Positions 13 through 50,144 of a stretch of DNA of 64,000 bases are shown piece by piece (the first letter of the stretch is position 1; each line of letters starts with the position of its first letter). A program made the position numbers and the translations under genes. Location of the stretch: the sequence record KP869100. The stretch is one strand, 5' to 3'. The notes below the pieces were generated by a model, which did not search any database, was not told the DNA's origin, and saw nothing but the letters and a program-made list of their open reading frames with translations. The stretch is from Escherichia typing phage 1.

Positions 13-420
13 ATGTACACAGAAATTTGTGATAAGTTGAACTGCTCAAGACATGCTGCTAAGGTTCTTGTACATTGTTTTATTTGGGAATGCTCAGAAG
101 CCTATATGAAACACGTAGCTTTTGAGAGTTCTCATTTACTCGGTGATGTAAAAATAGGTGTAGCACTAAAAGAGCCTGAGATGAAAACAGTACCTAAGGT
201 CGGTAATGTGTATAAACTAAAAAATTTTATTACAGGCGAGATTGTTGCAGAAGGTGAAGTGCAACAGGTTTATCATGATGGTAAATATCTGTTTAAGATA
301 TTCGAGTATGATAGTCGTTACAGACACTTATGTGGTATTACATTTTTAGTTTCAGAGGATGACCTCATCAAGAACAATAGTAATAAATTCGCAGTACCAG
401 AATATCAAGTTTTACGATAA
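13..420 (+). CDS. hypothetical protein
   Basis: 135-aa ORF from the track; no recognisable motif; overlaps next ORF by 62 nt in another frame. Confidence 0.4.
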   Translation: MYTEICDKLNCSRHAAKVLVHCFIWECSEAYMKHVAFESSHLLGDVKIGVALKEPEMKTVPKVGNVYKLKNFITGEIVAEGEVQQVYHDGKYLFKIFEYDSRYRHLCGITFLVSEDDLIKNNSNKFAVPEYQVLR

Positions 421-982: not shown

Positions 983-992
983 AATATCTTAA

Positions 993-1019
993 GAGCCTCC
1001 TTAATTGGGGGCTTTTTTT
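993..1019 (+). terminator. intrinsic terminator
   Basis: GAGCCTCC-TTAATT-GGGGGCT hairpin followed by TTTTTTT, just after stop at 980-982. Confidence 0.6.
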
Positions 1020-1021
1020 AA

Positions 1022-2560
1022 TTTTTATAAAAATTTTATCGGTTGTTCCAACCTCTGGGTCACCATCATATGTGAATAAAATATCTATCCTTCTTAACAA
1101 CCTTCTTAATCTTACTCTCTATATATAGTTATATAGTACTATATAGTGTCTTAGTAACTATCTAGTGGTCTTAATAGCCCCTCTGTATAACCCTTCTAAA
1201 TAGCCCTCTAAACACTCTTCTAACAAGCCTTCTTAACAACCTATACAATCACCTTAACCATCTCTCTATACGCTCTTAGAAGCCTCTATACACCCCTTAA
1301 TCTCTATGTCAGCTATGATACTCTCTATAGGTGTTCACTAGGCACTACTAAGCCTCTATATAGACTGTTTTAACAAACTTAACAGGAATATCTTTACAGA
1401 CCTTATCTCACAAGGTCTAACACGGTACTAACAAGGTATCTTATAAGCCTGTTTCTACCTGTATTTTTAAAAGACTGTATAAGTAATTATTCAGAATTTT
1501 AAAATTTTTATAAAATAAGACTGTCAAGTCATTTTTTAGGGTCTTTGAAGGAACTCAAAAATATCTGTAGAAGATGTATATCTGCTTGGTAGCCCTTAAC
1601 AGCTCCCTTACAAGTACTTTGCAAAATTTTAAAATATCCTTAACAACATCTTAACAACTCTCTCAAGCTCTTAACATCTCTTCAAAGGTCTTAACAGTTT
1701 CTTAACAGAACTAACAAGAACTTAACAGTTTTCTAACAAGCTTTGGTAGGGCTTTACAGAATCTTAACAGATAACTAACAAGAGCTAACAAGTTAATTTT
1801 AAAGAGTTATTTTGTTAAGATAATTAACAAGTTCCTAACAAGTGTTTAATCTTTTTAACAAGCTATTAACATGGTCACTATCTCTTTTCTTATCGTTCCC
1901 TTTCTCTCTTAGTGATTCTCTAAACATACCTTTTAAAAGCTCTCTATAGCTCCTTGTAAGCTCTTTTAAGCCTCTTCCTAGTATCTACCCCTCAACTGTA
2001 TGGATAGCTCTTTATAGGGCTTTACAGGAGCTTTTAAGGCTATGTCAAAGGTTCTTACAAGGCTTTTACGTGGTCTTAACAGAGATTTAACAAGGGGCTA
2101 ACAAGTTGCTAACAAGTGCCTTAAAAGCATAACTATGTAGGGATTGTTAAGAAATTGTTAAGGGGGCTAGCATTTACGTAACTTTTAAGCTACTTCAAAG
2201 TAACTTTATAGCCCCTATAACATACTTTTAAGACACTAACAAGCCCTTTTTAGTAGTTCACAAGATAGCTAACGAGATGATAAAGCTCACACCCTTATAA
2301 GATTCTTTTAAGGCTCTAGAAAGCTCTATAAAGGGCTTTTTAGAGTGGGTTAATATGATTGCTTAAGTTAGGTTGATAAGGCTGTTATAGGGCTTTATAG
2401 AGCGTTTAAATGGTTGCCCTTCCCTTTCGGGTTATGGGCTTATATTTAAGTTGATTTGATAAGGGGTTATAGAGTAAGCTATAGAGTTATTGCTTTTAAG
2501 GTACGGGATAGATTCTAGGAAGGAAAGGAAAGGGATTGTATAGAGTCTCTTTATAGACGT
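1022..2560. repeat. non-coding repeat-dense region (oriented yTAACAr and CTATAG-type short repeats)
   Basis: No credible ORF; more than 25 same-orientation copies of CTTAACA/CTAACAAG-type cores, 15 of them within 1640-1880, plus many CTCTATAG/TTATAGGG copies; bounded by terminators. Confidence 0.7.
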
Positions 2561-2613
2561 AAAAAAGCCCCTATGAGAAGGAGCTTTTCAGGTATCTGGG
2601 GCTATTTAGCCCC
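2561..2613 (-). terminator. terminator region ending the long minus-strand transcription block
   Basis: AAAAAAGCCCC..GGAGCTTTT and GGGGCTATTTAGCCCC hairpins flanked by A/T runs, just downstream of the stop at 2624. Confidence 0.45.
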
Positions 2614-2623
2614 GCTGCGTCGA

Positions 2624-2872
2624 TTAGTTGTAACCTTGTTTGCTGTAGTACAGAGAGACAATCAAGTCACCCCAATAATGGTAGTGAGATTCCTCGTTTA
2701 TGGCTTCTTTTACGGCATCTTTCCAGAAGTCATCAGTAGGGTTATAATCTGGTATCACCTGCTGAATCAGCATTTTGATAAGGTCAAAGGTGTTATCTGT
2801 TCCACCGATATCGAATTTTGCATCAAGTTGGTGGCAGCCATAAGCATTAACAGTTACGCGGATAGTTGACAT
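2624..2872 (-). CDS. hypothetical small protein
   Basis: 82-aa ORF; start directly downstream of a type-A cassette SD. Confidence 0.5.
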   Translation of the reverse strand: MSTIRVTVNAYGCHQLDAKFDIGGTDNTFDLIKMLIQQVIPDYNPTDDFWKDAVKEAINEESHYHYWGDLIVSLYYSKQGYN

Positions 2873-2966
2873 AATTTAGAATCTCCAGTTTAGGACTTTA
2901 TTTAGTGGGGAAGGTCATTCCCTCCCCGTTGTTTAGTAATTTACTGCATATTGGCGTAGGTTGCAA
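2873..2966 (-). promoter_or_regulatory. type-A cassette A1 (promoter TTGCAA-N17-TAAATT + G/C hairpin + SD)
   Basis: -35 at 2961-2966 and -10 at 2938-2943 (minus strand), then CAACGGGGAGGGAATGACCTTCCCC leader and GGAGAT SD before the ATG at 2872. Confidence 0.55.
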
Positions 2967-3204
2967 GCCTTTTTTCGTTGTATTTTGTCAGAATTTCACA
3001 AGATAGAACATCGTACATTGTAACCGCTTTGCTTTTGTCGAGGTCAAAAAAGCCAAATGCTTTACCATCTTTGAATCCGACAACTTCGTAAGATTCTTTA
3101 ATGATTTCACCATTGAACAAATCACTTTCGATACGGTGAAACAACGCTACGTCTTCTTTGTCAGTTGCAATCTGCAATAGTGTGGTTAATTCTACGTGTT
3201 CCAT
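2941..3204 (-). CDS. hypothetical small protein
   Basis: Track ORF 2941..3309 trimmed to the ATG at 3202-3204 because the upstream part is occupied by cassette A2. Confidence 0.45.
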   Translation of the reverse strand: MEHVELTTLLQIATDKEDVALFHRIESDLFNGEIIKESYEVVGFKDGKAFGFFDLDKSKAVTMYDVLSCEILTKYNEKRLATYANMQ

Positions 3205-3297
3205 TTTTGAATCTCCTAGTTTAAGGACTTTACTTAGTGGGAAGGTTAATCCCTCCCCGTTGATTGACAATTTACAGACTTTTGATTGTCTCGTCAA
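3205..3297 (-). promoter_or_regulatory. type-A cassette A2 (TTGACG-N17-TAAATT + hairpin + SD)
   Basis: -35 at 3292-3297, -10 at 3269-3274 (minus strand), conserved leader and TAGGAGATTC SD. Confidence 0.55.
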
Positions 3298-3802
3298 TAT
3301 CTTTTTCAATATCTTTTAAAGTTTTTTCTAAGTTCTTGATATTGAAGGATAAGCCTTCACCGAGAGTCTTAGAATAACCGCTAGGACGTAAATCATAAAG
3401 GCCAATTTGTTCTACATTGGAGAGGTTGACCATTTCACCGCTTACATCATAAGCTATTGATACGGTGTTTTCAGGGGCTTTATAGAACTTGTTAAGATTC
3501 TTGATAGAACGTTCATAAGCCATTTTATAACCATTTAAAAGGTCTTTAACGTGGTTGCGAACGTTTTTACACTCATCTAAGTAAATACCTAAGAATAGCG
3601 GTAACAGTTCTGCTACAGCTTGCATAAAGTGAGATACTACAACAGTAGAAACATTACGACGATGTATATAATAAGCCCCGTTTTCTGATTTAGTGATAGT
3701 TGCAAAGTGTACACCGTTGCAACGAAATTCGAAGGTATCTTTAACGGGTTTAGTCATAACGTTAGATGAGCGAATGTAGTTGATAGCTTGAAACTTGTTC
3801 AT
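3272..3802 (-). CDS. hypothetical protein
   Basis: 176-aa ORF preceded by cassette A3; no recognised domain. Confidence 0.55.
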   Translation of the reverse strand: MNKFQAINYIRSSNVMTKPVKDTFEFRCNGVHFATITKSENGAYYIHRRNVSTVVVSHFMQAVAELLPLFLGIYLDECKNVRNHVKDLLNGYKMAYERSIKNLNKFYKAPENTVSIAYDVSGEMVNLSNVEQIGLYDLRPSGYSKTLGEGLSFNIKNLEKTLKDIEKDIDETIKSL

Positions 3803-3895
3803 TTTGAATCTCCTAGTTTAAGGACTTTACTTAGTGGGGAAGGTCATTCCCTCCCCGTTGTTTAGTACTATACTTGTTTTGATTTGCCTTTGCAA
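3803..3895 (-). promoter_or_regulatory. type-A cassette A3 (TTGCAA-N17-TATAGT + hairpin + SD)
   Basis: -35 at 3890-3895, -10 at 3867-3872 (minus strand), conserved GGGGAAGGTCATTCCCTCCCC hairpin and SD. Confidence 0.55.
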
Positions 3896-4023
3896 GCAAT
3901 TTTTTAAGTTTATCTATAAAGAATCTATTAAGTGAATCCCTTTTAGATAACCCCCTCGAACAAAGTTACCAATGTCAATGGGTATTGTCAACACTTTTTT
4001 AAAAGTTTTTTGTAAGTTATTGA

Positions 4024-4365
4024 TTAACTTATGAAGATTTTTTCAGGCTTTACATAGCTGATACGCTGACTTTTTAGCAGGTCATCCCAGATTAAAGCGG
4101 CAATATGTGCATAACCGGATTCACGTAAAAGCTTCATTGTTTTACTTCTCGTTTCAAAACGGCTTGCGTAGTATTCACTGTTCAAGGTCGTTTTATTCCC
4201 TTCGTTATCTGTATGGATGATTTGCATCACTTGAAAGGGGCTTACACCCTCGCCTTTGTTCCACTGTTCAAAGTATTTTAGGCACTGCATAGGTGACATC
4301 TTATCACTTACTTGAGTTGACCAAGATGAGCCAGCTTTATCGGTAATTACGGTTACATAAGCCAT
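4024..4365 (-). CDS. hypothetical protein
   Basis: 113-aa ORF; preceded by type-B cassette B1. Confidence 0.55.
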   Translation of the reverse strand: MAYVTVITDKAGSSWSTQVSDKMSPMQCLKYFEQWNKGEGVSPFQVMQIIHTDNEGNKTTLNSEYYASRFETRSKTMKLLRESGYAHIAALIWDDLLKSQRISYVKPEKIFIS

Positions 4366-4450
4366 TTTAGAATCTCCAGTTTAGGATTGAGTGGTAAAGC
4401 TCTTTATCTGGGGCTTACTATACAGACTAATAAGCCCCATGTAAAGTACT
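4366..4450 (-). promoter_or_regulatory. type-B cassette B1 (AAAGTACTTT palindrome + GGGGCTTA/TAAGCCCC hairpin + conserved leader + SD)
   Basis: Perfect 8-bp inverted repeat GGGGCTTA..TAAGCCCC at 4410-4438; leader AGATAAAGAGCTTTACCACTCAATCCTAAACTGGAGATTC precedes the ATG. Confidence 0.55.
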
Positions 4451-4699
4451 TTAAGCGTCTTTATATTCTATCTCTGTGCACTCACCTTTTACTAGCTCAA
4501 AGGTCCAAATAATTCGTTTATACTCAATCACTACTACAGTAACAAGGTCAGTCCTCTTCTCATTGGTTTTAAAGTCTATTGTGTGGGTATACTCATAACT
4601 AGTCTTATCCTTAATTTCCCCGTAGCGTCTACACTCTTTATAGACTTCATCCATTAAGCCATTGCTAACCATGTTTTTTAGTTGAGTTTTAGTATACAT
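4451..4699 (-). CDS. hypothetical small protein
   Basis: 82-aa ORF; preceded by cassette A4. Confidence 0.5.
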   Translation of the reverse strand: MYTKTQLKNMVSNGLMDEVYKECRRYGEIKDKTSYEYTHTIDFKTNEKRTDLVTVVVIEYKRIIWTFELVKGECTEIEYKDA

Positions 4700-4795
4700 T
4701 TTTTGGAATCTCCTAGTTTAAGGACTTTACTTAGTGGGGAAGGTCATTCCCTCCCCGTTGATTGATAATTTACAGACTTTTATCAGGCTTGTCTA
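4700..4795 (-). promoter_or_regulatory. type-A cassette A4 (TAGACA-N17-TAAATT + hairpin + SD)
   Basis: -35 at 4790-4795, -10 at 4767-4772 (minus strand), conserved hairpin and SD. Confidence 0.55.
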
Positions 4796-5026
4796 GTCTT
4801 TTTCAATGATAATTTCATATTGACCATCGACACTGTCGAAATAGATTCCTTCGTCATCTTCTGTCTTAAAGTAACATTGTATATCATCACTGGCGGGGTA
4901 GTCTTGTCTTGCTATCTGGCAAACTTGAATAGCATTTTCTTTACTTCCTGTAAACTCTTCAAGCCCTTTAAAGTCACATGAATGGCCGTTACAAATGGAA
5001 AGGATGAGATAAATGGTTGTAAGCAT
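4793..5026 (-). CDS. small protein with hydrophobic N-terminus (possibly secreted)
   Basis: 77-aa ORF; N-terminus MLTTIYLILSICNG is signal-peptide-like. Confidence 0.45.
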   Translation of the reverse strand: MLTTIYLILSICNGHSCDFKGLEEFTGSKENAIQVCQIARQDYPASDDIQCYFKTEDDEGIYFDSVDGQYEIIIEKD

Positions 5027-5036
5027 GATTTAAGCC

Positions 5037-5058
5037 CTCTAAAAGCCCCTGTAAGGGG
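5037..5058 (-). terminator. putative intrinsic terminator
   Basis: CCCCT-GTA-AGGGG hairpin followed on the minus strand by CTTTT, immediately after the stop at 5093. Confidence 0.4.
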
Positions 5059-5092
5059 TTAATCAGTGTTTATAAGGTGAATGTATAGGTTT

Positions 5093-5635
5093 TTAGAAAA
5101 AGACCTTTAAATCACTCTCTACAATGTTTTCTGTCAGTGTATCCATGATGTCACAAAAAACCTGAATACTGTCGGATTGTTGGATACTTTTAGCAAGTAG
5201 CTCCAATGTTTCATCAAGATAATTTAAATTTGGGTTATCCAGTGAAGGGAGACAAAAAGGTGAATACATAGCGTTGAACTCTGTTGTATAGACCTTTTTA
5301 ATCCAATTTACATCAAAGTACTCTGTAAAGCTTGCTATATTTGACATGTTATCACAAGAATAATCATCATTTAGCTCATCCTCTGGAATGTCAAGTTCTA
5401 AGATAACAATATTTTGAGTTTTCATCTGAAAAGCTGCCGTGATAGTGGCATTTCCTAGAGCTTGCTGGATACCTTCCGATGCTATCTCTTCCTCATCATC
5501 ACCATAGAGTTTATTTTCTGGGTACACGTAAAAATTGCCGTCCATATCCGAACAATTCCATACACCTGATGGTTTATCACCGTTATTAATCAGGTTAATA
5601 AAGTTTTCTTGAGTAGTACCGTGAAAGCATTTCAT
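5093..5635 (-). CDS. highly acidic protein (DNA-mimic-like composition)
   Basis: 180-aa ORF, very rich in D/E with few K/R (runs such as GDDEEEIASEG, DIPEDELNDD); preceded by cassette B2. Confidence 0.55.
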   Translation of the reverse strand: MKCFHGTTQENFINLINNGDKPSGVWNCSDMDGNFYVYPENKLYGDDEEEIASEGIQQALGNATITAAFQMKTQNIVILELDIPEDELNDDYSCDNMSNIASFTEYFDVNWIKKVYTTEFNAMYSPFCLPSLDNPNLNYLDETLELLAKSIQQSDSIQVFCDIMDTLTENIVESDLKVFF

Positions 5636-5742
5636 TTTGAATCTCCTAGTTTAAGGATTTAGTGGTAAAGCTCTTTATCTGGGGCTTACTTTATCGAACT
5701 ATAAGCCCCTTGTAAAGTACTTTATCAGTTAATTTTTGACAA
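5636..5742 (-). promoter_or_regulatory. type-B cassette B2 (TTGTCA-N17-TACTTT + hairpin + SD)
   Basis: -35 at 5737-5742, -10 at 5714-5719 (minus strand); GGGGCTTA..TAAGCCCC hairpin; conserved leader and SD. Confidence 0.55.
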
Positions 5743-5926
5743 CTTTTAAAACTGCAAGATAACCTAAGCAATAAGAATCACCGAAGAGAGTTCTACCCAT
5801 GAAAGAATCATCTTTGATATCCTTTGCAGTGACTGTTTTTTCTACGCCGTGGGAAAGAACTACATCACCAACTTTAATGTCTTTGATGTGCGTGGTTTCA
5901 ATGGTTAAACCGTTGATAATAGCCAT
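5729..5926 (-). CDS. hypothetical small protein
   Basis: 65-aa ORF; preceded by cassette A5. Confidence 0.45.
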   Translation of the reverse strand: MAIINGLTIETTHIKDIKVGDVVLSHGVEKTVTAKDIKDDSFMGRTLFGDSYCLGYLAVLKVVKN

Positions 5927-6020
5927 TTTGAATCTCCTAGTTTAAGGACTTTACTTAGTGGGGAAGGTCATTCCCTCCCCGTTGATGTGTAATTTAATCT
6001 ATCTAAAAATCAGTGTCAAT
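5927..6020 (-). promoter_or_regulatory. type-A cassette A5 (TTGACA-N17-TAAATT + hairpin + SD)
   Basis: -35 at 6015-6020, -10 at 5992-5997 (minus strand); promoter part identical to cassette A6. Confidence 0.6.
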
Positions 6021-6027
6021 AAAATTT

Positions 6028-6432
6028 TTAGAGTTCTGCATAAATTGCGTCGCAGATGTCACGAAAGTCATGATTTGCCAAATTACGTTGTAACCAAGTG
6101 GCAAAGAAATCAGCGATTGCAAAATTAGCATCATACTCAACAGATAGCCACACTTTCACGGCAAATCTAAACATTTTCAAGTCTAACTCTTTATTCATTA
6201 CCTTAGATTTGCCTAACATGTCGACCATTTCATATTGTGCACCGTCTAGCGTGATACCTGCTGCAACGTCAGCCAATGAGTTTTTTACGTTTTCAACGTC
6301 TAAGATAACGCTTTGAATCTTTCCGATAATGTTGTGCAATGTTTCATCCGGTGCTGATGATGTAATAACATTGATTCGATTAACGGTTAAACGTGCTTTT
6401 AAGATTGACAACTCACGATTATTAATAGCCAT
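6028..6432 (-). CDS. hypothetical protein
   Basis: 134-aa ORF; preceded by cassette B3. Confidence 0.55.
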   Translation of the reverse strand: MAINNRELSILKARLTVNRINVITSSAPDETLHNIIGKIQSVILDVENVKNSLADVAAGITLDGAQYEMVDMLGKSKVMNKELDLKMFRFAVKVWLSVEYDANFAIADFFATWLQRNLANHDFRDICDAIYAEL

Positions 6433-6517
6433 TTTAGAATCTCCAATTTAGGATTGAGTGGTAAAGCTCTTTATCTGGGGCTTACTGTACAGACTAATAA
6501 GCCCCCTGTAAAGTACT
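6433..6517 (-). promoter_or_regulatory. type-B cassette B3
   Basis: GGGGCTTA..TAAGCCCC hairpin, AAAGTACTTT palindrome, conserved leader and SD. Confidence 0.5.
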
Positions 6518-6790
6518 TTATACTAAATGCAGTTTTTTACCTTTTACTATGATGTAACTTGATGTGCTATTGCTACATACATCCTGATAAATTCTGCGCA
6601 AACGTCCTTCATAGTATACTTTCCAGCTAGTTGGAATCTTTTTGCCGTATCCGGTAGCAGTTTTTTGGAGTCCTGCGACTTGCCAATCTAAGATATGTTG
6701 CTCAGCCTGTAAATCCTCAAAGTGCATCACACCGTCTACATAGTGACGTAGAGTGACATTTAAAGTGCGACCGTTGTTAGTAGTATACAT
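6518..6790 (-). CDS. hypothetical small protein
   Basis: 90-aa ORF; preceded by cassette A6. Confidence 0.5.
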   Translation of the reverse strand: MYTTNNGRTLNVTLRHYVDGVMHFEDLQAEQHILDWQVAGLQKTATGYGKKIPTSWKVYYEGRLRRIYQDVCSNSTSSYIIVKGKKLHLV

Positions 6791-8894: not shown

Positions 8895-9090
8895 TAAAAA
8901 CCTACCTGCACGATTCTAAAATGATTTTTCTTGCCCGACCTGAGCGGGGTCTGCACGTTTTGAAAATGAAAAAGCTCTTTGGAGATTACCTGCACAGTTT
9001 GAAAATGAATTTTCTCTTTGGAGTTCAAAATTCTCTCTACAGATTTCTCTACAGAACTCTACCTGCACAATCCTGAAATGAAAAAGCCCT
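8895..9090. repeat. four direct repeats (CCTGCAC-N-TGAAAATGA) in a GC-richer non-coding island
   Basis: acctgcacgattctaaaatga, tctgcacgttttgaaaatga, acctgcacagtttgaaaatga, acctgcacaatcctgaaatga; surrounding G-rich tract ggggagaggtggagtaagagggggagagggg. Confidence 0.6.
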
Positions 9091-9154
9091 CCTTACCTGA
9101 AAAATTTACCAGATAAAGAAGGCTTAGTCTATTGTGAATATTATACAGAGTTTC

Positions 9155-9940
9155 TTAGTTCTTTGCGTCTAAGAAGGTAACTTCTGGTGAAGAGAAGACC
9201 GTCTCGATATCCTCATCAGTTCTTGCATAAATATATGTATCTGCATCACTGCCAAATGTTACGGCTATCCTGTGATTGCTCTTCGACAGGTGGGTAACTA
9301 GAGCGTTACTTAGAGACATCTTCTCAACCGGAGGGTTACTTTGATGTATCTTACCTTTTCTTCGTCTGAAGAGGGTAACTGTATCATCTTTGAACGTTAC
9401 TACACCTGCAAAGTATTCTGGTTCACAGTAGTTATTCCAACCTGAGCGTAACTTGTGGTACATCTCTCCTTCGTAGACATACAGATAAACATCTACACTC
9501 TTCATCACCTGATTAATGATAACTGTGACGGCTTGAGGGTCAAGTCCACCGATACCTGCACCAATCATAGGTAAACCAACCTTCTTCAACTGATTAACTT
9601 CACAGTATCTGTTAAGCTGTTTCAAAGATGACTCTAAAGCACTGTATCGGGCATCTTTACCAGTCTTAAGCTGAGTGTAAAGGTTAGCTATACGACCTTG
9701 TTTTAAACGTGCTACAGAGAAATTACCCAGTAAATTTTCACAGGGTTTGTGTCCTATACCACCTGCATACAGATAAACTTCTGTATCGGTCTCATATGCT
9801 TTTGGGTAAAGTTTAGAAATCTTGTCAGCGATACCTGCACCCATTAAATTCATACAGTTGCAACCGTGACCGATGATGTCAAACTTACCTTTATCAAATG
9901 CGGCAAAGATATCACCATTAATTATTTTTACAATACCCAT
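9155..9940 (-). CDS. macro-domain protein (ADP-ribose binding/processing) with about 90-aa C-terminal extension
   Basis: 261 aa; GDIFAAF..FDIIGHGCNCMNLMGAGIA and GLPMIGAGIGGL resemble the two macro-domain signature blocks. Confidence 0.55.
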   Translation of the reverse strand: MGIVKIINGDIFAAFDKGKFDIIGHGCNCMNLMGAGIADKISKLYPKAYETDTEVYLYAGGIGHKPCENLLGNFSVARLKQGRIANLYTQLKTGKDARYSALESSLKQLNRYCEVNQLKKVGLPMIGAGIGGLDPQAVTVIINQVMKSVDVYLYVYEGEMYHKLRSGWNNYCEPEYFAGVVTFKDDTVTLFRRRKGKIHQSNPPVEKMSLSNALVTHLSKSNHRIAVTFGSDADTYIYARTDEDIETVFSSPEVTFLDAKN

Positions 9941-10966: not shown

Positions 10967-11235
10967 TTCCTCGTTTTAAGAACTGCTAAGATTTCTTTAG
11001 AGTCTGGTAGGAACCATGTGTAGTGATTCTCTTTGATTTCTGGATGAGTGTCAACCTTTATTTTGCACTCTTTACCAACATGCTTAAGCTGTGCTGTGAT
11101 ACCTTGCATAAAGATGTGACACATTACATTATCCATAATCGTAGGTAAGAAATCAATCCTCATGTAAGTATCTTTCGGTCTCGGTAGAAGTAAGTAACCT
11201 TCTGTGTAGAAAGTTTCATCATTACTTTGTGTCAT
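10963..11235 (-). CDS. hypothetical protein
   Basis: 90-aa ORF; ATGA-type overlap with the upstream gene. Confidence 0.45.
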   Translation of the reverse strand: MTQSNDETFYTEGYLLLPRPKDTYMRIDFLPTIMDNVMCHIFMQGITAQLKHVGKECKIKVDTHPEIKENHYTWFLPDSKEILAVLKTRK

Positions 11236-11501
11236 TACTGCTTATTCCCTAATAAAATCATATCAATCAAGTTGTTAGCTTTCATAGTACACTGATAGTA
11301 CCCGTCACGATAAAACTCAAGGGCTTCTGATAAGTCTGCACCAGTGTTACCTTTGACAGCATATCTTACATCTTCCTGAGTGTACTTATCACTTTCACTT
11401 ACTTGGGAGTTTTTGAATGTATTGCTCACTTTGTTCGTTGAACACCCTGACATAGTTATCAGTAACACAAACATTATAAAACTCTGGCTTAGTCTTTTCA
11501 T
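11235..11501 (-). CDS. lipoprotein (outer-membrane spanin candidate)
   Basis: 88 aa; signal MKRLSQSFIMFVLLITMSGC with a lipobox-like Cys; overlaps the 3' end of the upstream membrane protein in another frame, as in Rz/Rz1. Confidence 0.4.
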   Translation of the reverse strand: MKRLSQSFIMFVLLITMSGCSTNKVSNTFKNSQVSESDKYTQEDVRYAVKGNTGADLSEALEFYRDGYYQCTMKANNLIDMILLGNKQ

Positions 11502-11742
11502 ATGTCAGTACCTCTTTTGTGTGCTTATTCTTAGCAAGCACGTCTTTCAAATCATTTTTGTAATTGGTGCTCAGTGTAGCTAATCCTTCCTGATAAGCAT
11601 CTTTAGCAACACTTATTAGCTTCTGGTTGTTTAGCTCAGTTTCAGCAACTTGGTAGTCTCTGTAAGAGTATCCTCCCCAGACACCTGCCCCAACTAAGAA
11701 AACAATTATGAAAGTAGCTTGACAGAACTCTTTAAATGTCAT
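11395..11742 (-). CDS. N-terminally membrane-anchored protein (inner-membrane spanin candidate)
   Basis: 115 aa; TM segment FIIVFLVGAGVWGGY then a helical periplasmic part; overlapping lipoprotein gene. Confidence 0.4.
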   Translation of the reverse strand: MTFKEFCQATFIIVFLVGAGVWGGYSYRDYQVAETELNNQKLISVAKDAYQEGLATLSTNYKNDLKDVLAKNKHTKEVLTYEKTKPEFYNVCVTDNYVRVFNEQSEQYIQKLPSK

Positions 11743-11756
11743 TTAACAATCTCCTG

Positions 11757-11782
11757 AAATGAAAAAGGCTCCCGAAGGAGCC
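11757..11782 (-). terminator. intrinsic terminator (GGCTCC-CGAA-GGAGCC)
   Basis: Perfect 6-bp stem with CGAA loop at 11767-11782, T-run on the minus strand. Confidence 0.6.
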
Positions 11783-11794
11783 TGTATCTTAACC

Positions 11795-12274
11795 TTAACC
11801 GAGGACTTTAGCAAGGATATTTGCAGCCATCGAAGAAGCTTTTGCAGCAGCAACTACGCCAGCTTTGACAGTGCTATCCTTAATAGCAGATACCGTTGCA
11901 GCATCAGTAAAGAGATAAGTGATTGTTTTGGAACCACTTGTAAAGGAAAGCATAAGAGTAGTTTCCAGATTGAAAGAGCGATACGGAGCACCTTCTTTAA
12001 CGATACCTTCAGCACCTAACTCTGAAGCCTTACCCATATCATAGATAGTCATCAGGTTTTCTTTGTGTGCAGTCGTTGAACCAACACCTTTTACGTGCTT
12101 CTTAACGTTCAACAATGCACGATATTCACGAATGCTACCATCAGCTTTTACATTAACAGCACGGAAAATTTTACCTTCAAAGTTACCTTGAATCATTTTA
12201 CGAACTACTTCAGATTTGTTTGCCGTATCGTCCAGTGCTACCGTAATAATATTGTTCATAAGTTCTTCTCTCAA
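11795..12274 (-). CDS. hypothetical protein
   Basis: 159-aa ORF; Ala-rich C-terminus. Confidence 0.5.
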   Translation of the reverse strand: MREELMNNIITVALDDTANKSEVVRKMIQGNFEGKIFRAVNVKADGSIREYRALLNVKKHVKGVGSTTAHKENLMTIYDMGKASELGAEGIVKEGAPYRSFNLETTLMLSFTSGSKTITYLFTDAATVSAIKDSTVKAGVVAAAKASSMAANILAKVLG

Positions 12275-12966
12275 TGTTTAACTAACATAGTTTTAATGTG
12301 TGGAAGGATTCTGTTTACCTTCTGAACATTATTCTCTGTATCTTCTATAAAGCATACTATATTAAAGTAAGGAAGAATGCAAGACTGAATCATCCTCACT
12401 TTCAAACTTTCTGCACTTATAGAGTTAGTTCCAAAACCACGCATAAAAAGCAAGTAATCATGCTCTATATTGTGCCTTAAAAACATCTCAGTAGGTATTC
12501 TCTGAGATTCACCTCTTGCTGTCAAGAGTCCAACTGCTGCATGATTTGCAATTGCATCAATAATGTTGAAAACATATGTTGGCTTTGCTCTTACAGAATC
12601 AAGAAGATTAGTGTACTGTGAGAATGAACCATCAGTCAATTCCGTTGAGCAATCTTCGTGATTAAAATTTGTAAGAACACCATCAATATCTGCTAAGATG
12701 AGGTTACCTTTTTCTACAAGGTCTTTATTGACTATGACTAAACTATCGCGCCTTACACCTATAGTTTGTCCAGTCTCTTTGTCCACAACGTTCACAATTG
12801 GTTCTGATGTGTGGAACTCTTCCAGTGAACATACAACTTCTCTTGCAGTGTCTTCAAAATCCCTACACTGTTCTGGAGTCCATACACAGGAATCAAGACC
12901 TAACTCATGAGGATGTAAGTCATAAGCGTGGCACAGGACTTCATCAGACTTTTTTAATTTTTTCAT
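12271..12966 (-). CDS. HAD-superfamily phosphatase-like protein
   Basis: 231 aa; LILADIDGVLTNF matches HAD motif I (DxDGVL). Confidence 0.45.
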   Translation of the reverse strand: MKKLKKSDEVLCHAYDLHPHELGLDSCVWTPEQCRDFEDTAREVVCSLEEFHTSEPIVNVVDKETGQTIGVRRDSLVIVNKDLVEKGNLILADIDGVLTNFNHEDCSTELTDGSFSQYTNLLDSVRAKPTYVFNIIDAIANHAAVGLLTARGESQRIPTEMFLRHNIEHDYLLFMRGFGTNSISAESLKVRMIQSCILPYFNIVCFIEDTENNVQKVNRILPHIKTMLVKH

Positions 12967-13492
12967 GGTTTACCTTAGAAATGTTTGTTGCAAATTCACA
13001 TTGAGCAATAACTTTCATGTTGTTATAGACATCTTGAGAATATTTCTTAGCTTTAGGGATTCTGTACGAATACCCAGCATTATATGATGCTAAAACTTTT
13101 TGTAAAGTCTTCTTTGACTTTGGGTGACCATGCACCTTCGTCCAAAACTCAAGCTCTTTATGTGTTTCTTTTGCGGCATAGTCAAAATCTTTTAAGAGTT
13201 TCTTTTTAGCAACATTAGGACTAATTTTGTTACGCTTTACAACAGTCTTCAAGTGATTCTGGAAGATACCATAGTCATGGGTCTTTTTATTTTCTACCTT
13301 CAGACCTAACTCTGACTCTTGTAAGGCTATAGCTGCTAGAGTGATACCCCAACCTTTACCCATGTTATTCTCACCATACTGGTAAGCTTTTAACATGTTC
13401 ACTTTTTGGCTAATTGATAGTTCTGGGCAGTCAACTGCATAAGATAAGTGTGCTGTAAACATTAAGCACAAACCTAGAATCAATTTCTTCAT
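12944..13492 (-). CDS. secreted lytic transglycosylase (SLT domain; candidate endolysin)
   Basis: 182 aa; N-terminal signal peptide; SLT motifs ALQESELG, GIFQ and AYNAGYSY. Confidence 0.65.
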   Translation of the reverse strand: MKKLILGLCLMFTAHLSYAVDCPELSISQKVNMLKAYQYGENNMGKGWGITLAAIALQESELGLKVENKKTHDYGIFQNHLKTVVKRNKISPNVAKKKLLKDFDYAAKETHKELEFWTKVHGHPKSKKTLQKVLASYNAGYSYRIPKAKKYSQDVYNNMKVIAQCEFATNISKVNHEKIKKV

Positions 13493-13592
13493 TGGTTCTC
13501 CTGTTTAGTTTATCGTGACATCAATTATACAGCACTCTGCACAAAATACAAATAAAAAAGGCCGCCGAAGCAGCCTTTTAAGAAATTACTTA

Positions 13593-14702
13593 TTAGATTT
13601 CACGTTTACGTTGAGAGATGAGTTCACCAGCAGTGCCAACGATGACATGCAAAGCTTCAGTCTTACCGTCCCATGCTTCCAGCACTTTACGTTGATTATC
13701 AACGATTGCTGCAACTTCATAACGAGAGGAACGCATCTTCATATCATTGTAATCAGTTGGAACAGATACAACATCTCGTGGATGTACGCGAACCTTCAGG
13801 ATTGTATCACCTGAGAAGCAACGAACATAATCCCAAGCACCAACATGAAGACCTTGAGAGCAAGTTACGTTACGGTTATTATCAACCATCCAACGTGGCA
13901 TTTCTACAATGTTACCCAAATCATTAGGCACTTTGTAGGTGTGAGAGTCAACCAGCTTGCCTTCACGAGTAGAGACTTTCTTCCAACCAATGATGTAGCC
14001 TTCTTCATCAATTTCAACATCAAGGTGAGATACAAATCCCCAAAGTTGTTCTACAGAATCTTTAGATGGGTTTTCCATCAGTTTTTCGAAGAACATTACA
14101 AGTCGTTCAAAACCTTTATCGCCAGTTTTCATCATGTGAAGAATACGGTCAACCAGAGTAGAACGCATCTCAACAGCACCGTAGAATAGCTTGTCGCCTT
14201 TGATTGTGATAGCACCCTGAGTGAAGTTTTCGATAGACTTACGAATGTTCATCAGTTCAAATGCTTTCTTGAACTGACCTTTCACAACATGAACTACAAT
14301 CTCTTGATAGTTCGGATGAGTAGACTCAACAATTTCAGATTCTGAACCATAAGTCATAATTACAGAATCACCAGTAATCATGTACTCAATCTTGTCATCT
14401 TTCTGCATAGCTTCGTGCAGTTTATTTACTGGAGCTTTCTGTACAGTGTCTTTAACGACCTTTTCAACTGGTTTGCCAGCTTTCTTTTTAAAAGTCTTAG
14501 CAAATTGTTTCAAAGTCTTCGTAGCTGGTGTAGAAGTTGCCTTCTTCTTGCCTTTTAAGGTTGCTTCATGACGCTCTACAGCACGACCAACTGAACGGGT
14601 TGAAGTATTGAACTTCTGTGCAATAGCTGTTTTAGTCAGCTTACCTTCTTTAACCAGTTTGTAAATTTCTGCGTCAATCTGTGCTTTAGTTTTAGTAGTC
14701 AT
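13593..14702 (-). CDS. putative rIIB-like protein with N-terminal HTH
   Basis: 369 aa; immediately downstream of the rIIA-like gene as in T4; HTH-like LTKTAIAQKFNTSTRSVGRAVERH; assigned by synteny only. Confidence 0.4.
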   Translation of the reverse strand: MTTKTKAQIDAEIYKLVKEGKLTKTAIAQKFNTSTRSVGRAVERHEATLKGKKKATSTPATKTLKQFAKTFKKKAGKPVEKVVKDTVQKAPVNKLHEAMQKDDKIEYMITGDSVIMTYGSESEIVESTHPNYQEIVVHVVKGQFKKAFELMNIRKSIENFTQGAITIKGDKLFYGAVEMRSTLVDRILHMMKTGDKGFERLVMFFEKLMENPSKDSVEQLWGFVSHLDVEIDEEGYIIGWKKVSTREGKLVDSHTYKVPNDLGNIVEMPRWMVDNNRNVTCSQGLHVGAWDYVRCFSGDTILKVRVHPRDVVSVPTDYNDMKMRSSRYEVAAIVDNQRKVLEAWDGKTEALHVIVGTAGELISQRKREI

Positions 14703-14781: not shown

Positions 14782-17148
14782 TTAATCGTAAATTGTTGTA
14801 CCTTCTGGAACACATTTCACATTAAAGCCTAAAAACTTACTCACTTCGATAGGTGATACTTTATTCCAATCTAAGTGTGAAAGCAAGAAGTTTTCTTGTT
14901 TTCTTTTTGAAAGATAGTTTGTCAGCTTGATAACCATGCGGTCACCTGCTTTTTTAATCTTTTTGTACAGTTTTGTGTCATTATCAAGGCATGACTTCAA
15001 ATCCTGAAGAACACTGATAGTGTAAGTGTATGCAAACGGTGCAGCCACATACTGAATCTTACCGAACATTGCCTCAACAGCATCTTCATTCCCTTCTAAG
15101 AAGATTGTCTTAATAGTATCCCTTGAATAACAATACCCGCGAGAAATCTTCCTGTTATTGAACGTAAAGTTTCTGGCAATAATCCAACTGCTTGTAAGGT
15201 CGAGGACACCATCCATGTAGATGCGTGTCATATACCTGTTATGGTTAATCCAATGAACATCAGTTAAGCTGTCGTTCAAGAGCTTCTCATCTACTTCAAT
15301 CCAGTCTTCTGGTATCTTTTTCCAATTTGCTTTTCGGAAAACATAGACTGTCTTGCCTGTAACATTAGCAACTGACTTAGCTACATCCTCTGGAGATGAG
15401 CAAAAACATCTACCATCAACTGTGTCACCTACTGCCTTAATATAAAGCTGAGGCTCTTCAATTGTGTCTAAGTCTTCTGACACCTCTTTGTATGAAGCTT
15501 TAGTTTCTGCTGGAACAGCTTTCCAGAGTTTTACAACACCCCTTACAGCTTCTTTACGCTGATAGTGGTGTTCCTTATCAGACATCTTCACAATCTTTAA
15601 CAAGCTTTTATCAAGTTTGTGTAGATTGATTAAATCATCTAACTCTTTTTCAGTCGAGAATACAAAGACAATACCATTGTATCTGTGAAACAGATTTGAC
15701 TCACTGGCGTAGTCTCGACATGCACCACGCAAAATTTGATTGCGTCCTACAGTCTTCTCAGTACCGTTTTTATTGCGACGGTCATTAATCACGAACAAAA
15801 ACTGTTCAATTTGGCTTTTACGCATTGCACCAAAGATATTGAACATGCTTGCCTCTTGAGTGTAGGAAAGTGCTGTTGCACGAATCTTACTCTCTAAAGA
15901 GTTGAACTTGACATAAGCAACTGGGTCATAAAGATAATCTACTTTAGGGATATTGTTCCCGTTCCTATCAACCTTAATATTGCCTTTACCGTCACGTTCA
16001 TAAATGACTGAGCCGTCTTCTGCGTAGATAATTCCACGACGAATGTTTAACAATTCTTCTTCCAGAGAATCAAGCTTAATGCCTCCCCACTCTAGCTTTG
16101 GACACACAGCATTAAACATCTCTCGTGAGTTCAAACGTAGCTCTGCATAAGCCTGTGCAGCATCCATGAGTGTAGGTTGGCTATTAACTTTCTTGATAAC
16201 ATCCTTTGTAATTGCTTCAGTTATCTTTTTGGTAGCCTCGATGATAACATTTTTTGTCGTATCATTCATCTGCAATGCTTCACGAGAAGCTGCTATAGCA
16301 ACTGAACCAATAGGCATGTAGATGTTTACAAGGTCTACGCTCCTACGGAAAAACTCTGGCAAGACTTTGAAGAAATCATCACCAAGTAATGCTTCCATGT
16401 TCACTGGATAGGCAATATTACCCATCACCACATTAAACTCTGTCCTGTTACCACTAGAACGCCAGCTTTGCTTATGAATCATGGCATCATAAACACCTTC
16501 TTCACGGGCAATGACGTTCATATCTGCTAATACATCGTCGTACTCAATATTACTTTCTGGTTTTACAGTGAAGTATGAGTACACATTTCCAGCTTCTTCA
16601 AAGAACTTTGAGATACGGTGGTCAGCAACTGCCACACGTACAGCTAAACCATTAGGTTCTTTTGTTGGGTTAGTGGTCAGCTTAGTTACTTGAGGGATAC
16701 CATTCTCAAGATAAACAGAGTACTTATTAACAACACCATCAACATAGCTAGATACTGTGAATGACTGAGCAATTGCAAATGGGGATTTTGAGCCGATACC
16801 CATTGCACCAATGTAGTCATTAGAGTCATTCTTCGTAGAAGCCCCGTAGTTTAGGTACAAACTCATAACTTTATCATGAGTCAATCCAGTTCCAAAATCA
16901 CGAACTTCAAAGTAAGGCTCAAAACGAGTAGGTAAATGCACATGGAACGGAATGTTCTCTTTTCCAGCTTCTTTCTGAGCATCTACTGCGTTACATGACA
17001 GTTCACGAATCACTGCCCTTTCTTTAAAGGTATATACACCAGAACTCAAAAGGCTGAACATCTCAGGTGTCATTGTAATCTGTGCTTGAGACGTCTCTAA
17101 AGAAGTTGAACTCTTAATCACTTCTGCGTGGTCATTTACCATGCGCAT
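14782..17148 (-). CDS. rIIA: rIIA-like protein (GHKL ATPase fold)
   Basis: 788 aa; GHKL motifs IRELSCNAVDA, DFGTGLT, GAMGIGSKS. Confidence 0.65.
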   Translation of the reverse strand: MRMVNDHAEVIKSSTSLETSQAQITMTPEMFSLLSSGVYTFKERAVIRELSCNAVDAQKEAGKENIPFHVHLPTRFEPYFEVRDFGTGLTHDKVMSLYLNYGASTKNDSNDYIGAMGIGSKSPFAIAQSFTVSSYVDGVVNKYSVYLENGIPQVTKLTTNPTKEPNGLAVRVAVADHRISKFFEEAGNVYSYFTVKPESNIEYDDVLADMNVIAREEGVYDAMIHKQSWRSSGNRTEFNVVMGNIAYPVNMEALLGDDFFKVLPEFFRRSVDLVNIYMPIGSVAIAASREALQMNDTTKNVIIEATKKITEAITKDVIKKVNSQPTLMDAAQAYAELRLNSREMFNAVCPKLEWGGIKLDSLEEELLNIRRGIIYAEDGSVIYERDGKGNIKVDRNGNNIPKVDYLYDPVAYVKFNSLESKIRATALSYTQEASMFNIFGAMRKSQIEQFLFVINDRRNKNGTEKTVGRNQILRGACRDYASESNLFHRYNGIVFVFSTEKELDDLINLHKLDKSLLKIVKMSDKEHHYQRKEAVRGVVKLWKAVPAETKASYKEVSEDLDTIEEPQLYIKAVGDTVDGRCFCSSPEDVAKSVANVTGKTVYVFRKANWKKIPEDWIEVDEKLLNDSLTDVHWINHNRYMTRIYMDGVLDLTSSWIIARNFTFNNRKISRGYCYSRDTIKTIFLEGNEDAVEAMFGKIQYVAAPFAYTYTISVLQDLKSCLDNDTKLYKKIKKAGDRMVIKLTNYLSKRKQENFLLSHLDWNKVSPIEVSKFLGFNVKCVPEGTTIYD

Positions 17149-26065: not shown

Positions 26066-26073
26066 CTTTCATT

Positions 26074-49740: not shown

Positions 49741-49775
49741 AAAAAGGCTCCTTTTTACGGGAGCCTTAAATTTTA
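49741..49775. terminator. bidirectional intrinsic terminator between convergent blocks
   Basis: GGCTCC..GGGAGCC hairpin flanked by AAAAA and TTAAATTTTATTTTT. Confidence 0.55.
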
Positions 49776-50144
49776 TTTTTCAGTATTCTTTGTGTTCTTT
49801 TCAGTAATAGCTTGCAAGGCTGATACTGATTGAGCCAGATTGTTCACACTGTCAGAGAATTTATCAAGGGTTTTGGTAAGTTTTGCGTTTTCACCCTTAA
49901 CATTCTCTAACTGAACTTTCTGGTTCTCCATCCCTAGCTGAATCAATCTCATGTCAGACTGTAAATCACGAATAGCTGAATAGTTACTTTTGGAATAATT
50001 ATCTAGCTGCTGTAACTTTGTTGTGACAGACACTTCCTGCTTACCACTTGAGACTTGCATAGTGGTATACATCCCAATAACACTAAAAATACCAACTACA
50101 ATTGCACCAATATTATTTTTAAAAGCTTCCTCTAGCCACTTCAT
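49773..50144 (-). CDS. membrane-anchored coiled-coil protein (holin/antiholin- or spanin-like candidate)
   Basis: 123 aa; TM IGAIVVGIFSVIGMY then helical region. Confidence 0.45.
   Translation of the reverse strand: MKWLEEAFKNNIGAIVVGIFSVIGMYTTMQVSSGKQEVSVTTKLQQLDNYSKSNYSAIRDLQSDMRLIQLGMENQKVQLENVKGENAKLTKTLDKFSDSVNNLAQSVSALQAITEKNTKNTEK

Follow-up and report, generated by a model that had tools for sequence, protein, structure and literature searches.

The window, i.e. the whole stretch of 64,000 nucleotides analysed here (Escherichia typing phage 1, KP869100), represents a Felixounavirus genome that is 99.2% identical to E. coli O157 typing phage 15, with wV8, fjerdesal and other relatives at 95–97% identity. 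The genes of interest (Table 1) would lie in the rII-proximal early/middle arm of this Felix O1-like myovirus. All four open reading frames that the initial annotation had combined into one lysis cluster, encoding an SLT protein, a HAD protein and an overlapping spanin-like pair, were confirmed on the minus strand, as were the motifs ALQESELG and GIFQ of the SLT protein and ADIDGVL of the HAD protein, whereas the third SLT motif reads SYNAGYSY and not AYNAGYSY.

Table 1. Genes and sequence features at the locus and candidate lysis genes elsewhere in the window
Feature	Position	Strand	Evidence or remark
Intrinsic terminator at the end of the unit with the spanin genes (Felix O1 t13)	9084..9125	-	After macro-domain gene
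Macro-domain gene	9155-9940		Upstream of t13 terminator
o-spanin, 88 aa	11235..11501	-	phrog_4180, E = 2e-47; phrog_456 Rz-like spanin, E = 1e-4
i-spanin, 115 aa	11395..11742	-	phrog_1152 Rz-like spanin, E = 9e-42
Intrinsic terminator between 154-aa gene and i-spanin gene (Felix O1 t5)	11766..11783	-	7-bp stem, 5 GC pairs, T-run
Conserved gene, 154 aa from ATG	11795..12259	-	phrog_2267, E = 4e-50
HAD-superfamily phosphatase, Pnkp-type, 231 aa	12271..12966	-	phrog_3970, E = 2e-134
Vs.1-family GH23/SLT-fold enzyme, 182 aa, predicted to be exported	12944..13492	-	phrog_600, E = 1e-57; homology to T4 Vs.1
Predicted signal peptide of SLT protein, about aa 1-19	13436-13492	-	Rule-based
TATAAT perfect hexamer, possible sigma-70-type promoter of SLT unit	13524..13529	-	Read from sequence
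Intrinsic terminator after rIIB (Felix O1 t2)	13556..13579	-	10-bp stem, 5 GC pairs, T-run
rIIB homologue, upstream transcription unit with rIIA	13593..14702	-	PHROG RIIB, E = 2e-89; rIIB in relatives
rIIA	14782-17148		Same unit as rIIB
Candidate holin, 123 aa, one N-terminal TMD	49773..50144	-	Kyte-Doolittle maximum 1.62, residues 11-31; phrog_4038
Small protein with hydrophobic N-terminus, 64 aa	50145..50339	-	phrog_402; Kyte-Doolittle maximum 1.56

The N-terminus of the SLT protein consists of MKK, LILGLCLMFTAHL and SYA/VD (the slash marks the predicted cleavage site), and by rule it has the features of a type I signal peptide, namely a positive n-region, a short h-region within the range of 7–15 residues and small residues at −3 and −1; signal peptide and lipobox (see below) were both called by such sequence criteria and not by SignalP or LipoP. 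Signal-peptide-like N-termini were also found in 123 of 144 family representatives, and in the structural model residues 1–19 lie outside the fold with pLDDT <50. As n- and h-region, −3/−1 residues and the family-wide N-termini agree, the cleavable-looking signal peptide noted initially was retained as a prediction. For the protein itself, the model shows a lysozyme-like GH23 fold. Profile searches against solved structures led to EtgA (E = 7e-4) and goose lysozyme (E = 7e-3), and by profile and fold EtgA from the type III secretion of EPEC and the goose-type lysozymes (GH23) are the best relatives of solved structure, with similar size but just about 15–19% identity; a PDB search with the single sequence gave no match. 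Unlike EtgA, the SLT protein stands in a phage context and has no secretion-system partner. The Pfam SLT model (PF01464) was hit with 19.2 bits (E = 9e-4) and did not reach its gathering cut-off of 21.3 bits, and a precomputed PF01464 match is present in several more distant relatives. E59, Y137, G140 and Y151 are invariant (160 of 160 family sequences each), S60 and G75 are conserved in 154 and 151 of the 160, and N138 is part of the motif Y137-N138-x-G140. The putative catalytic Glu59, located in an E-S motif, aligns in the profile alignment with the catalytic Glu of EtgA and GEWL, as does the following Ser with that of EtgA and goose lysozymes. At the positions checked no second acidic residue is conserved, a hint that the protein probably cleaves glycan strands as a lytic transglycosylase. 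Conserved motifs together with profile and fold matches support the initial assignment as a GH23/SLT-fold enzyme, for which export is predicted.

A tblastn match (E = 4e-9, 31.6% identity over aa 1–155) to a T4 CDS annotated as Vs.1 placed the protein in a family with this 20.7-kDa conserved hypothetical protein from the vs-regB region, and a GenBank note for Felix O1 also links the homologue of the SLT protein to T4 Vs.1. Both proteins are nearly equal in length (181 aa in T4, 182 aa here), start with a signal-like N-terminus and have the motifs E-S, G-x-F-Q and S-Y-N-x-G in common, and both phages encode a separate endolysin. They differ in their gene neighbours, regB and vs in T4 and rIIB and a Pnkp-like gene here, and in a cysteine pair (C22/C165) of the Felix-type proteins that T4 Vs.1 does not have.

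The HAD gene and the SLT gene share 23 nt. The presence of ADIDGVL and PHROG matches to a phosphatase half agree with the HAD-motif protein described between the SLT gene and the spanins: the match to phrog_505 is confined to profile positions 158–281 of 295, and phrog_415 was found with E = 3e-6. DIDGV at residues 93–97 aligns with DVDGT of T4 and a C-terminal ED with DD, so that HAD motifs I (DxDGT/V) and IV line up with T4 PseT, although pairwise BLASTP is weak (E = 0.085). In contrast to PseT, a motif search revealed no kinase P-loop (G....GK[ST]), a kinase domain is missing, and no relationship exists over the first 85 residues. The protein resembles the 3'-phosphatase domain of T4 Pnkp in kinase-less form, and its common annotation as 'polynucleotide kinase' is therefore misleading. 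A link to lysis is not evident. A further gene that had been missed initially lies downstream of the HAD gene and ahead of the spanins; its ORF extends to 12274 (159 aa) when read from an upstream TTG, it is annotated in relatives (a 465-nt CDS in fjerdesal, ORF5 in Felix O1), and in a metagenomic locus (L008) its homologue has the rIIB/SLT genes on one side and the HAD gene on the other.

Intrinsic terminators divide these genes. Table 2 published for Felix O1 lists t2 with a sequence identical to the rIIB terminator found here, and t5 and t13 are listed as well. The two strong terminators at 13579–13556 and 11783–11766 had been overlooked in the initial annotation. Downstream of t2, the TATAAT hexamer follows TTTGTA (13552–13547) at a distance of 17 nt and might be part of a sigma-70-type promoter for the SLT unit; a promoter scan remained silent on this site because the −35 element matches at 3 of 6 positions only. 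From t2 to t5, a first unit would encode the Vs.1-family enzyme, the Pnkp-type HAD 3'-phosphatase without kinase domain and the 154-aa protein, and an overlapped spanin of the two-component type would come first in a second unit.

The genes of i-spanin and o-spanin have 107 nt in common, read in different frames, with the o-spanin start inside the i-spanin gene, and the same arrangement is seen in Felix O1, EP335, Pistou and PM-CJR. A single N-terminal TMD (Kyte-Doolittle 19-mer maximum 1.75, residues 6–24), kept in homologues, is the only hydrophobic segment of the i-spanin, in which the periplasmic C92 and the motif EK..P.f.N.C..D.Y..FNE are invariant; its AF2 model is almost entirely helical (39–57, 65–79, 85–111) at a low-confidence pLDDT of 52.6. 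The o-spanin starts with MKR and a hydrophobic stretch followed by MSGC/S, which by rule is a lipobox with Ser at +2 as expected for outer-membrane sorting, in line with the lipobox check suggested for this protein. Cys20-Ser21 (five homologues, four phage groups) and Cys71 are invariant. With C92 of the i-spanin and C71 of the o-spanin, both partners agree with the published rule that spanins have one or more periplasmic cysteines for disulfides between molecules (Kongari et al., 2018). In the Proteus phage PM-CJR, the homologues are found inside a holin-X-endolysin-i/o-spanin cassette, i- and o-spanin annotations exist in GenBank relatives, and the pairs of Felix01, FO1a and UAB_phi87 are catalogued as overlapped in the spanin survey (Kongari et al., 2018). 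From PHROG match, conserved lipobox and cysteines, the PM-CJR homologues and the catalogue entry, the pair is, by its sequence, a genuine and previously catalogued two-component spanin, as had been proposed from the overlap. The i-spanin would be anchored in the inner membrane and the o-spanin sorted as a lipoprotein to the outer membrane; binding to each other across the periplasm, they would complete lysis by disrupting the outer membrane after wall degradation.

Wall degradation at lysis would fall to a cytoplasmic endolysin of the Phage_lysozyme type, whose gene would lie just beyond the left end of the window. In the closest relative a canonical lysozyme gene lies ~2.8 kb past the left end of the window, and separate Phage_lysozyme endolysins are encoded by Felix O1 (gp35), typing phage 15 (rrrD) and fjerdesal. 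A search within the window revealed no endolysin gene; located beyond its end, the gene was therefore invisible to the initial annotation. This had also stated correctly that no holin-like gene is adjacent, as no membrane protein flanks the spanin pair, and had pointed to two small membrane proteins at 49773–50339. Both ORFs exist, with one TMD in the 123-aa product and a hydrophobic N-terminus in the 64-aa product. The endolysin would presumably be released by a holin encoded elsewhere, for which the 123-aa ORF, located after the tail-fibre gene and about 38 kb from the spanins, is the best candidate. It is labelled 'holin' in the fjerdesal annotation and, judged by gene order, would correspond to gp79 of Felix O1, which comes second after the tail fibre gp77 and has been named as a holin candidate; experimental support for it was not found in the literature searched.

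Based on the structure of the genes, the fold, the conserved residues for catalysis and sorting, the homologies found, the terminators and the lack of an endolysin gene in the window, we are fairly confident that the locus comprises parts of two adjacent transcription units with a spanin pair and an accessory Vs.1-like enzyme, and not a lysis cassette, the endolysin being encoded separately. The proposal that all these genes form a single lysis cluster, in which the SLT protein serves as lysin, was not supported: a terminator cuts off the SLT-HAD-154-aa unit from the spanins, and the genus has its own Phage_lysozyme endolysin. Dispersal of lysis genes over the genome is a published trait of Felix O1-like phages. 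The predicted signal peptide would carry the Vs.1-family enzyme via Sec to the periplasm, where after predicted signal cleavage its GH23 (SLT/goose-lysozyme) domain, whose single catalytic Glu is invariant, would cut the glycan strands of peptidoglycan. We conjecture an accessory, non-virion, periplasmic enzyme made in mid-infection, whose most likely task is to loosen or remodel the sacculus before lysis and not to execute lysis itself; the activity must then be low or controlled, because a soluble periplasmic muramidase at this stage might lyse cells early. This physiological role, like the enzymatic activity and the function of the spanins in this phage, is predicted, and the literature searched gave no experiments on these proteins in any Felixounavirus.

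A role outside lysis execution, in phage–phage competition or in the control of lysis timing, seems unlikely to us, and the same holds for its possible forms, a wall change directed against superinfecting phages, resistance to lysis from without or cell enlargement in lysis inhibition. It would suit an enzyme predicted to be periplasmic and produced before lysis, the occurrence of the family in large virulent myoviruses among the loci examined, and the position of the SLT gene next to rIIA/rIIB in genomes of the Ounavirinae type, among them the distant metagenomic locus L008. T4 encodes other periplasmic exclusion factors. The co-occurrence with rII, however, may just reflect a common gene pool.

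Less probable still is a lysis cluster that works without a holin, the SLT protein being exported by Sec and serving as phage lysin in direct cooperation with the neighbouring spanins. The enzyme is predicted to be exported and has an intact putative catalytic Glu, its gene is 1.2 kb from the spanins, and some relatives carry the annotation 'putative lysin'. Moreover, ORFs 3, 4, 6 and 35 of Felix O1 all peak at 25 min in RT-PCR, which puts ORF3 into one expression class with the endolysin and the i-spanin and is also compatible with a lysis role. Yet an endolysin is the muralytic enzyme essential for lysis, as a rule encoded next to holin or spanins, and here a canonical one is encoded in the genus just beyond the window. 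The SLT gene is set apart from the spanins by the terminator and by two unrelated genes. Its homologues do not neighbour lysis genes in T4, Ackermannviridae and jumbo phages, and T4 carries both Vs.1 and the endolysin E. According to the classical literature T4 e mutants fail to lyse, so that Vs.1 would not substitute for E.

A function of the SLT protein as a virion-associated enzyme that pierces the wall during infection, considered initially as the observation that would speak against an endolysin, is hardly credible: phage SLT domains are often tail- or core-associated, and T7 gp16, PRD1 P7 and tape-measure fusions are among the fold matches, but a cleavable-type signal peptide would export the protein from the cytoplasm, where virions assemble, the gene lies in the rII arm distant from the structural module, the Felix O1 homologue gp3 is missing from the listed virion proteome, and the virion proteins modelled for Bas63 are reported to derive from the structural module and one capsid-decoration gene >10 kb outside it. 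Least credible of all is a chance open frame instead of an o-spanin gene, as the 88-codon ORF is left out or shortened in some annotations but follows a good Shine-Dalgarno sequence (AAAGAGG) before its ATG, has its entry in the spanin catalogue, and is kept with lipobox Cys-Ser, second Cys and C-terminal motif at 30–35% protein identity in three other phage groups (Erwinia, Proteus and Nieuwekanaalvirus phages).

As a discovery the locus has limited weight, since the finding is ordinary and already known: the spanin pair was present in a published catalogue and in GenBank annotations, and the SLT-like ORF was tied to T4 vs.1 and an SLT domain about two decades earlier. Its practical value lies in correcting two tempting misreadings, the SLT protein as endolysin and the HAD protein as polynucleotide kinase, and in drawing attention to the Vs.1 family. 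An exported peptidoglycan-cleaving enzyme, as predicted, that is conserved and apparently active occurs in >2,100 sequenced phages including T4, and the literature searched contains neither a paper on the function of Vs.1 nor an assigned function for the family. Tentatively, and with considerable doubt, the family may be seen as a widespread, hitherto unstudied class of muralytic phage enzymes that are exported by Sec, do not depend on a holin and pre-condition the sacculus in mid-infection. If true, these enzymes could set the speed of lysis, let spanins act, or aid wall expansion or exclusion in lysis inhibition, and would be an additional unrecognised component of the lysis programme in large virulent myoviruses (T4-like, Vi1-like, Felix O1-like and some jumbo phages).

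Among known spanins, lambda Rz/Rz1 are similar in combining an inner-membrane protein with an outer-membrane lipoprotein in another frame, each with periplasmic cysteines. Unlike the lambda genes, the pair described here is overlapped and not embedded, is not located beside holin and endolysin, and has an o-spanin without proline-rich region (0 Pro); the similarity to Rz-like PHROGs is weak. T4 PseT.3/PseT.2 are likewise found in a region of early/middle genes, near a Pnkp(-like) gene and apart from holin and endolysin, but these are separated genes upstream of pseT, whereas the overlapped pair lies downstream of the Pnkp-like gene, and no sequence similarity was detectable between the two i-spanins. 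The closest counterparts are ORF6/ORF7 of Felix O1 (i-spanin 99%, o-spanin 85% identical), which together with the pair of phiEa21-4/phiEa104 (SpaninDB; Kongari et al., 2018) show the same overlap, TMD, lipobox and cysteines. There is no substantial difference to these pairs; the periplasmic part of the o-spanin (about 85%) has diverged more than its neighbours.

The 2.8 kb around the finding are 99.2% identical to Escherichia coli O157 typing phage 15 and 95-97% identical to wV8, fjerdesal, JLBYU32 and about 250 further Felixounavirus (Ounavirinae) genomes, and all genes of interest lie on the minus strand immediately downstream of rIIA and rIIB. All ORFs named in the initial annotation were found at their coordinates, and the motifs quoted there are present, except that the third SLT motif reads SYNAGYSY and not AYNAGYSY. 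Overlooked there were the conserved gene of a 154-aa protein (phrog_2267; Felix O1 ORF5) and, on the coding strand, a pair of strong intrinsic terminators, one after rIIB and one in front of the i-spanin gene. Due to these terminators the stretch represents parts of two transcription units and not one cassette, with the order SLT - HAD - 154 aa in the first and i-spanin - o-spanin - six small genes - macro-domain protein in the second. A single lysis cluster of SLT gene, HAD gene and overlapping pair, as had been proposed, can thus not be maintained, as the second terminator splits it. Downstream of the first terminator, a perfect TATAAT located 17 nt past TTTGTA is a possible promoter. A single copy of the T4 late promoter sequence TATAAATA is present in the window, against about four expected by chance, which is uninformative on timing. 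An NCBIfam scan of all seven proteins gave noise-level matches only, and Pfam gave no meaningful match for the HAD, 154-aa and spanin proteins.

Table. Features of the two transcription units and related elements in the window
Feature	Coordinates	Strand	Remark
rIIA	14782-17148	minus	
rIIB	13593-14702	minus	
Intrinsic terminator after rIIB	13579-13556	minus	sequence same as Felix O1 t2
TATAAT (possible promoter)	13529-13524		
SLT protein	12944-13492	minus	182 aa
HAD protein	12271-12966	minus	231 aa
154-aa protein	11795-12259	minus	
Intrinsic terminator between 154-aa gene and i-spanin	11783-11766	minus	sequence same as Felix O1 t5
Membrane protein (i-spanin)	11395-11742	minus	115 aa
Lipoprotein (o-spanin)	11235-11501	minus	88 aa
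Macro-domain protein	9155-9940		
Third terminator	9125-9084	minus	sequence same as Felix O1 t13
123-aa protein	49773-50144	minus	

The SLT protein is predicted to be a GH23 enzyme that is exported and belongs to the T4 Vs.1 family, in agreement with the initial annotation, which had called it exported and SLT-type: it combines a signal-like N-terminus, a GH23 fold model and a conserved catalytic Glu. Its Pfam SLT match of 19.2 bits (E=9e-4) is just under the threshold of 21.3. The AF2 model based on 15 homologues was confident (pLDDT 84.6) with residues 1-19 disordered, and a Foldseek search with this model agreed with the GH23 assignment. Single-sequence searches of the PDB with the SLT and HAD proteins gave no matches; EtgA (E=7e-4) and goose lysozyme (E=7e-3) were reached by the SLT family profile only, with the catalytic Glu aligned. 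In an exhaustive profile search, 1,266 clusters at 50% identity were retrieved, mostly with proteins of 160-190 aa. Among 160 aligned members, residues E59, Y137, G140 and Y151 never vary and S60, G63 and G75 hardly do, a pattern that points to an active enzyme. As no second acidic residue, expected from the goose-type hydrolase signature, is conserved at positions 61-81 of the family, the mechanism would tentatively lean towards a transglycosylase rather than a hydrolase. The N-terminus is basic and then hydrophobic in 123 of 144 family representatives. A SAR (signal-anchor-release) domain was rejected, the hydrophobic run comprising only about 13 residues and leading into a well-formed -3/-1 cleavage motif.

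An old GenBank note on Felix O1 ORF3, the homologue of the SLT protein, reads 'hypothetical 20.7 KD protein in vs-regB intergenic region', and tblastn confirmed this link to T4 Vs.1 (E=4e-9, 31.6% identity across 155 residues). T4 Vs.1 has 181 aa, a similar N-terminus (MRKALLAGLLAISMMAHS/SE...) and the motifs WQESSGG, GMFQ and SYNSG. Homologues were detected by tblastn in 2,126 phage records, including Straboviridae, Ackermannviridae, Ounavirinae and large Aeromonas and Vibrio phages; a further homologue is encoded by a chimallin-encoding jumbo phage. The latter homologue (6001-6582 of locus L009, from a 214-kb contig of Campylobacter coli assembly GCA_053226485.1) is encoded 1.4 kb from the chimallin (PF25677) gene, and the contig, filed as a bacterial assembly, looks like the genome of a nucleus-forming jumbo phage. 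A literature search for a functional study of Vs.1 turned up only a comparative-genomics remark, in which a marginal SLT match of vs.1 was noted and 'some role in cell lysis' suggested (Nolan et al., 2006). Lysis genes do not adjoin the homologues in T4 (between regB and vs/tk.4), Salmonella phage Mooltan and the jumbo phage. The distant metagenomic locus L008 shows the order rIIA-rIIB-x-SLT...154aa-like...HAD_PNKP...Macro, from which the rII and Pnkp-like genes, and not the spanins, emerge as stable partners of the SLT gene; two small membrane proteins following the HAD gene in L008 have no lipobox, so that the spanin position is not conserved there. The Felix O1 record marks the macro-domain ('A1pp phosphatase') protein, whose gene is the last of the spanin-containing unit, as counterpart of T4 Tk.4, encoded two genes away from Vs.1 in T4. 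rIIA, rIIB, Vs.1, Pnkp-like protein, spanins and Tk.4 thus make up a common T4-like set of accessory genes, arranged in another order.

Contrary to what the initial annotation had implied, the SLT protein is probably not the endolysin of the phage, since the genus has a separate Phage_lysozyme endolysin: gp35 in Felix O1, the 'lysin' fjerdesal_21 and rrrD (38014-38478) in typing phage 15. A copy of this gene was absent from the window by tblastn. The start of the window corresponds to fjerdesal position 24168, which lies a few kb past the endolysin gene; this gene was therefore invisible to the initial annotation. T4 likewise has the endolysin E in addition to Vs.1. Nothing points to a virion-associated SLT protein either: gp3 is missing from the 17 proteins listed for the Felix O1 virion, and a signal peptide is hard to reconcile with packaging into virions. 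The virion proteins modelled in the Bas63 paper are products of the structural module and of a single capsid-decoration gene located outside this module at a distance of more than 10 kb. By RT-PCR in Felix O1, ORFs 1, 3, 4, 6 and 35 fall into the 25-min class, and the enzyme is thus made mid-infection along with endolysin and i-spanin; an accessory lysis role of the Vs.1-like enzyme is compatible with this class.

The HAD protein between SLT gene and spanin pair has the HAD-type phosphatase motifs reported initially (DIDGV, residues 93-97) and lacks a P-loop. PHROGs named 'polynucleotide kinase' are among its matches; when the full-length Pnkp profile was compared, only the phosphatase half aligned (positions 158-281 of 295). 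HAD motifs I and IV align with D165/D167 and D277/D278 of T4 PseT, with a weak pairwise score. From these alignments, it is predicted to be a kinase-less Pnkp-type phosphatase, with no visible tie to lysis. The name 'polynucleotide kinase' is found in RefSeq and many GenBank relatives and appears to be a propagated mis-annotation, because of the lacking P-loop and the match to the phosphatase half of Pnkp profiles only. In T4 the spanin genes pseT.3/pseT.2 are directly upstream of pseT; common to both phages is a Pnkp(-like) gene close to the spanins, with the holin and endolysin genes at a distance.

The overlapping pair is a predicted two-component spanin, and here the initial annotation holds. 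The i-spanin has a single N-terminal TMD and matches the PHROG 'Rz-like spanin' (E=9e-42), and the o-spanin starts with MKR, a hydrophobic stretch and MSGC/S, a lipobox whose Ser at +2 would fit outer-membrane sorting. The two ORFs share 107 nt, read in different frames; they are overlapped, whereas lambda Rz/Rz1 are embedded, and the o-spanin has no prolines, unlike lambda Rz1. By tblastn, o-spanin homologues were found in 363 phage records, with copies of 30-36% identity in Erwinia Kolesnikvirus phages, Escherichia phage EP335 and Proteus/Klebsiella siphoviruses, and at every locus examined the homologue starts within an i-spanin-like gene in another frame. Proteus phage PM-CJR shows a classical lysis cassette (holin - small protein - peptidoglycan hydrolase - spanin pair). 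Cys20-Ser21, with Cys20 predicted to be lipoylated, and a second Cys71 are invariant in the o-spanin alignment, as are Cys92 and the motif EK..P.f.N.C..D.Y..FNE in that of the i-spanin; one periplasmic cysteine per partner would fit the disulfide rule of Kongari et al. (2018), who already catalogued Felix01/FO1a/UAB_phi87 and phiEa104/phiEa21-4 as overlapped two-component spanins. The helical AF2 model of the i-spanin (database homologues; pLDDT 52.6) is a weak hint of helicity only. No sequence similarity to T4 PseT.3 was found; homology between the two is therefore not demonstrable, and they count as analogous. Identity to the Felix O1 copy is 99% for the i-spanin; for the SLT protein it amounts to 95-99% in about 170 records and to 99% or more in another 44. 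The o-spanin shares only 83-86% with most Felixounavirus copies; its periplasmic part is therefore a local divergence hot spot (11235-11394, the part of the gene outside the overlap).

As noted initially, no holin is adjacent: a membrane protein flanking the spanin pair was not seen. The 123-aa protein has one TMD and no PHROG function, its fjerdesal homologue is annotated 'holin', and by gene order it appears to be the counterpart of Felix O1 gp79, which was among five holin candidates put forward in 2010. Dispersal of the lysis genes has already been described for Felix O1-like phages, and the Felix O1 paper states it for lysin and holin. ORF79 expression was reported to be maximal at 5 min, with its neighbour ORF78 and the endolysin ORF35 peaking at 25 min (Table 3 of PMC3185647), which is odd for a holin and therefore a ground for doubting this assignment.

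From the gene anatomy, folds, conserved catalytic and sorting residues, homologies, terminators and endolysin location, we consider the following overall picture likely. A holin would permeabilise the inner membrane, the cytoplasmic lysozyme would then degrade the wall, and the i-/o-spanin complex would finally disrupt the outer membrane. The Vs.1-like enzyme would be exported earlier via Sec, lose its signal peptide and nick or remodel peptidoglycan as an accessory factor; wall pre-conditioning as its specific role is a tentative and rather doubtful suggestion. All structural elements here are already annotated or published.

Window 1-4389 corresponds to fjerdesal 24168-28571, and 63567-64000 to fjerdesal 1-434; as the arbitrary start of the fjerdesal record thus falls inside the window, the gene order is rearranged or permuted relative to fjerdesal. 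Past about 39 kb of the sequence compared, collinearity with typing phage 15 is lost as well. Between small minus-strand genes at 2873-6500 there are intergenic repeats of two families, one with five copies of about 102 nt (at 2873, 3205, 3802, 4702 and 5926) and one with three 74-nt copies (at 4360, 5631 and 6427; 72-97% identical). On the minus strand their sequence comprises a stem-like segment and, after it, a ribosome-binding site with ATG, so that they could represent repeated modules of terminator, promoter and RBS; 'repeat_region' features are annotated in the same arm of fjerdesal.
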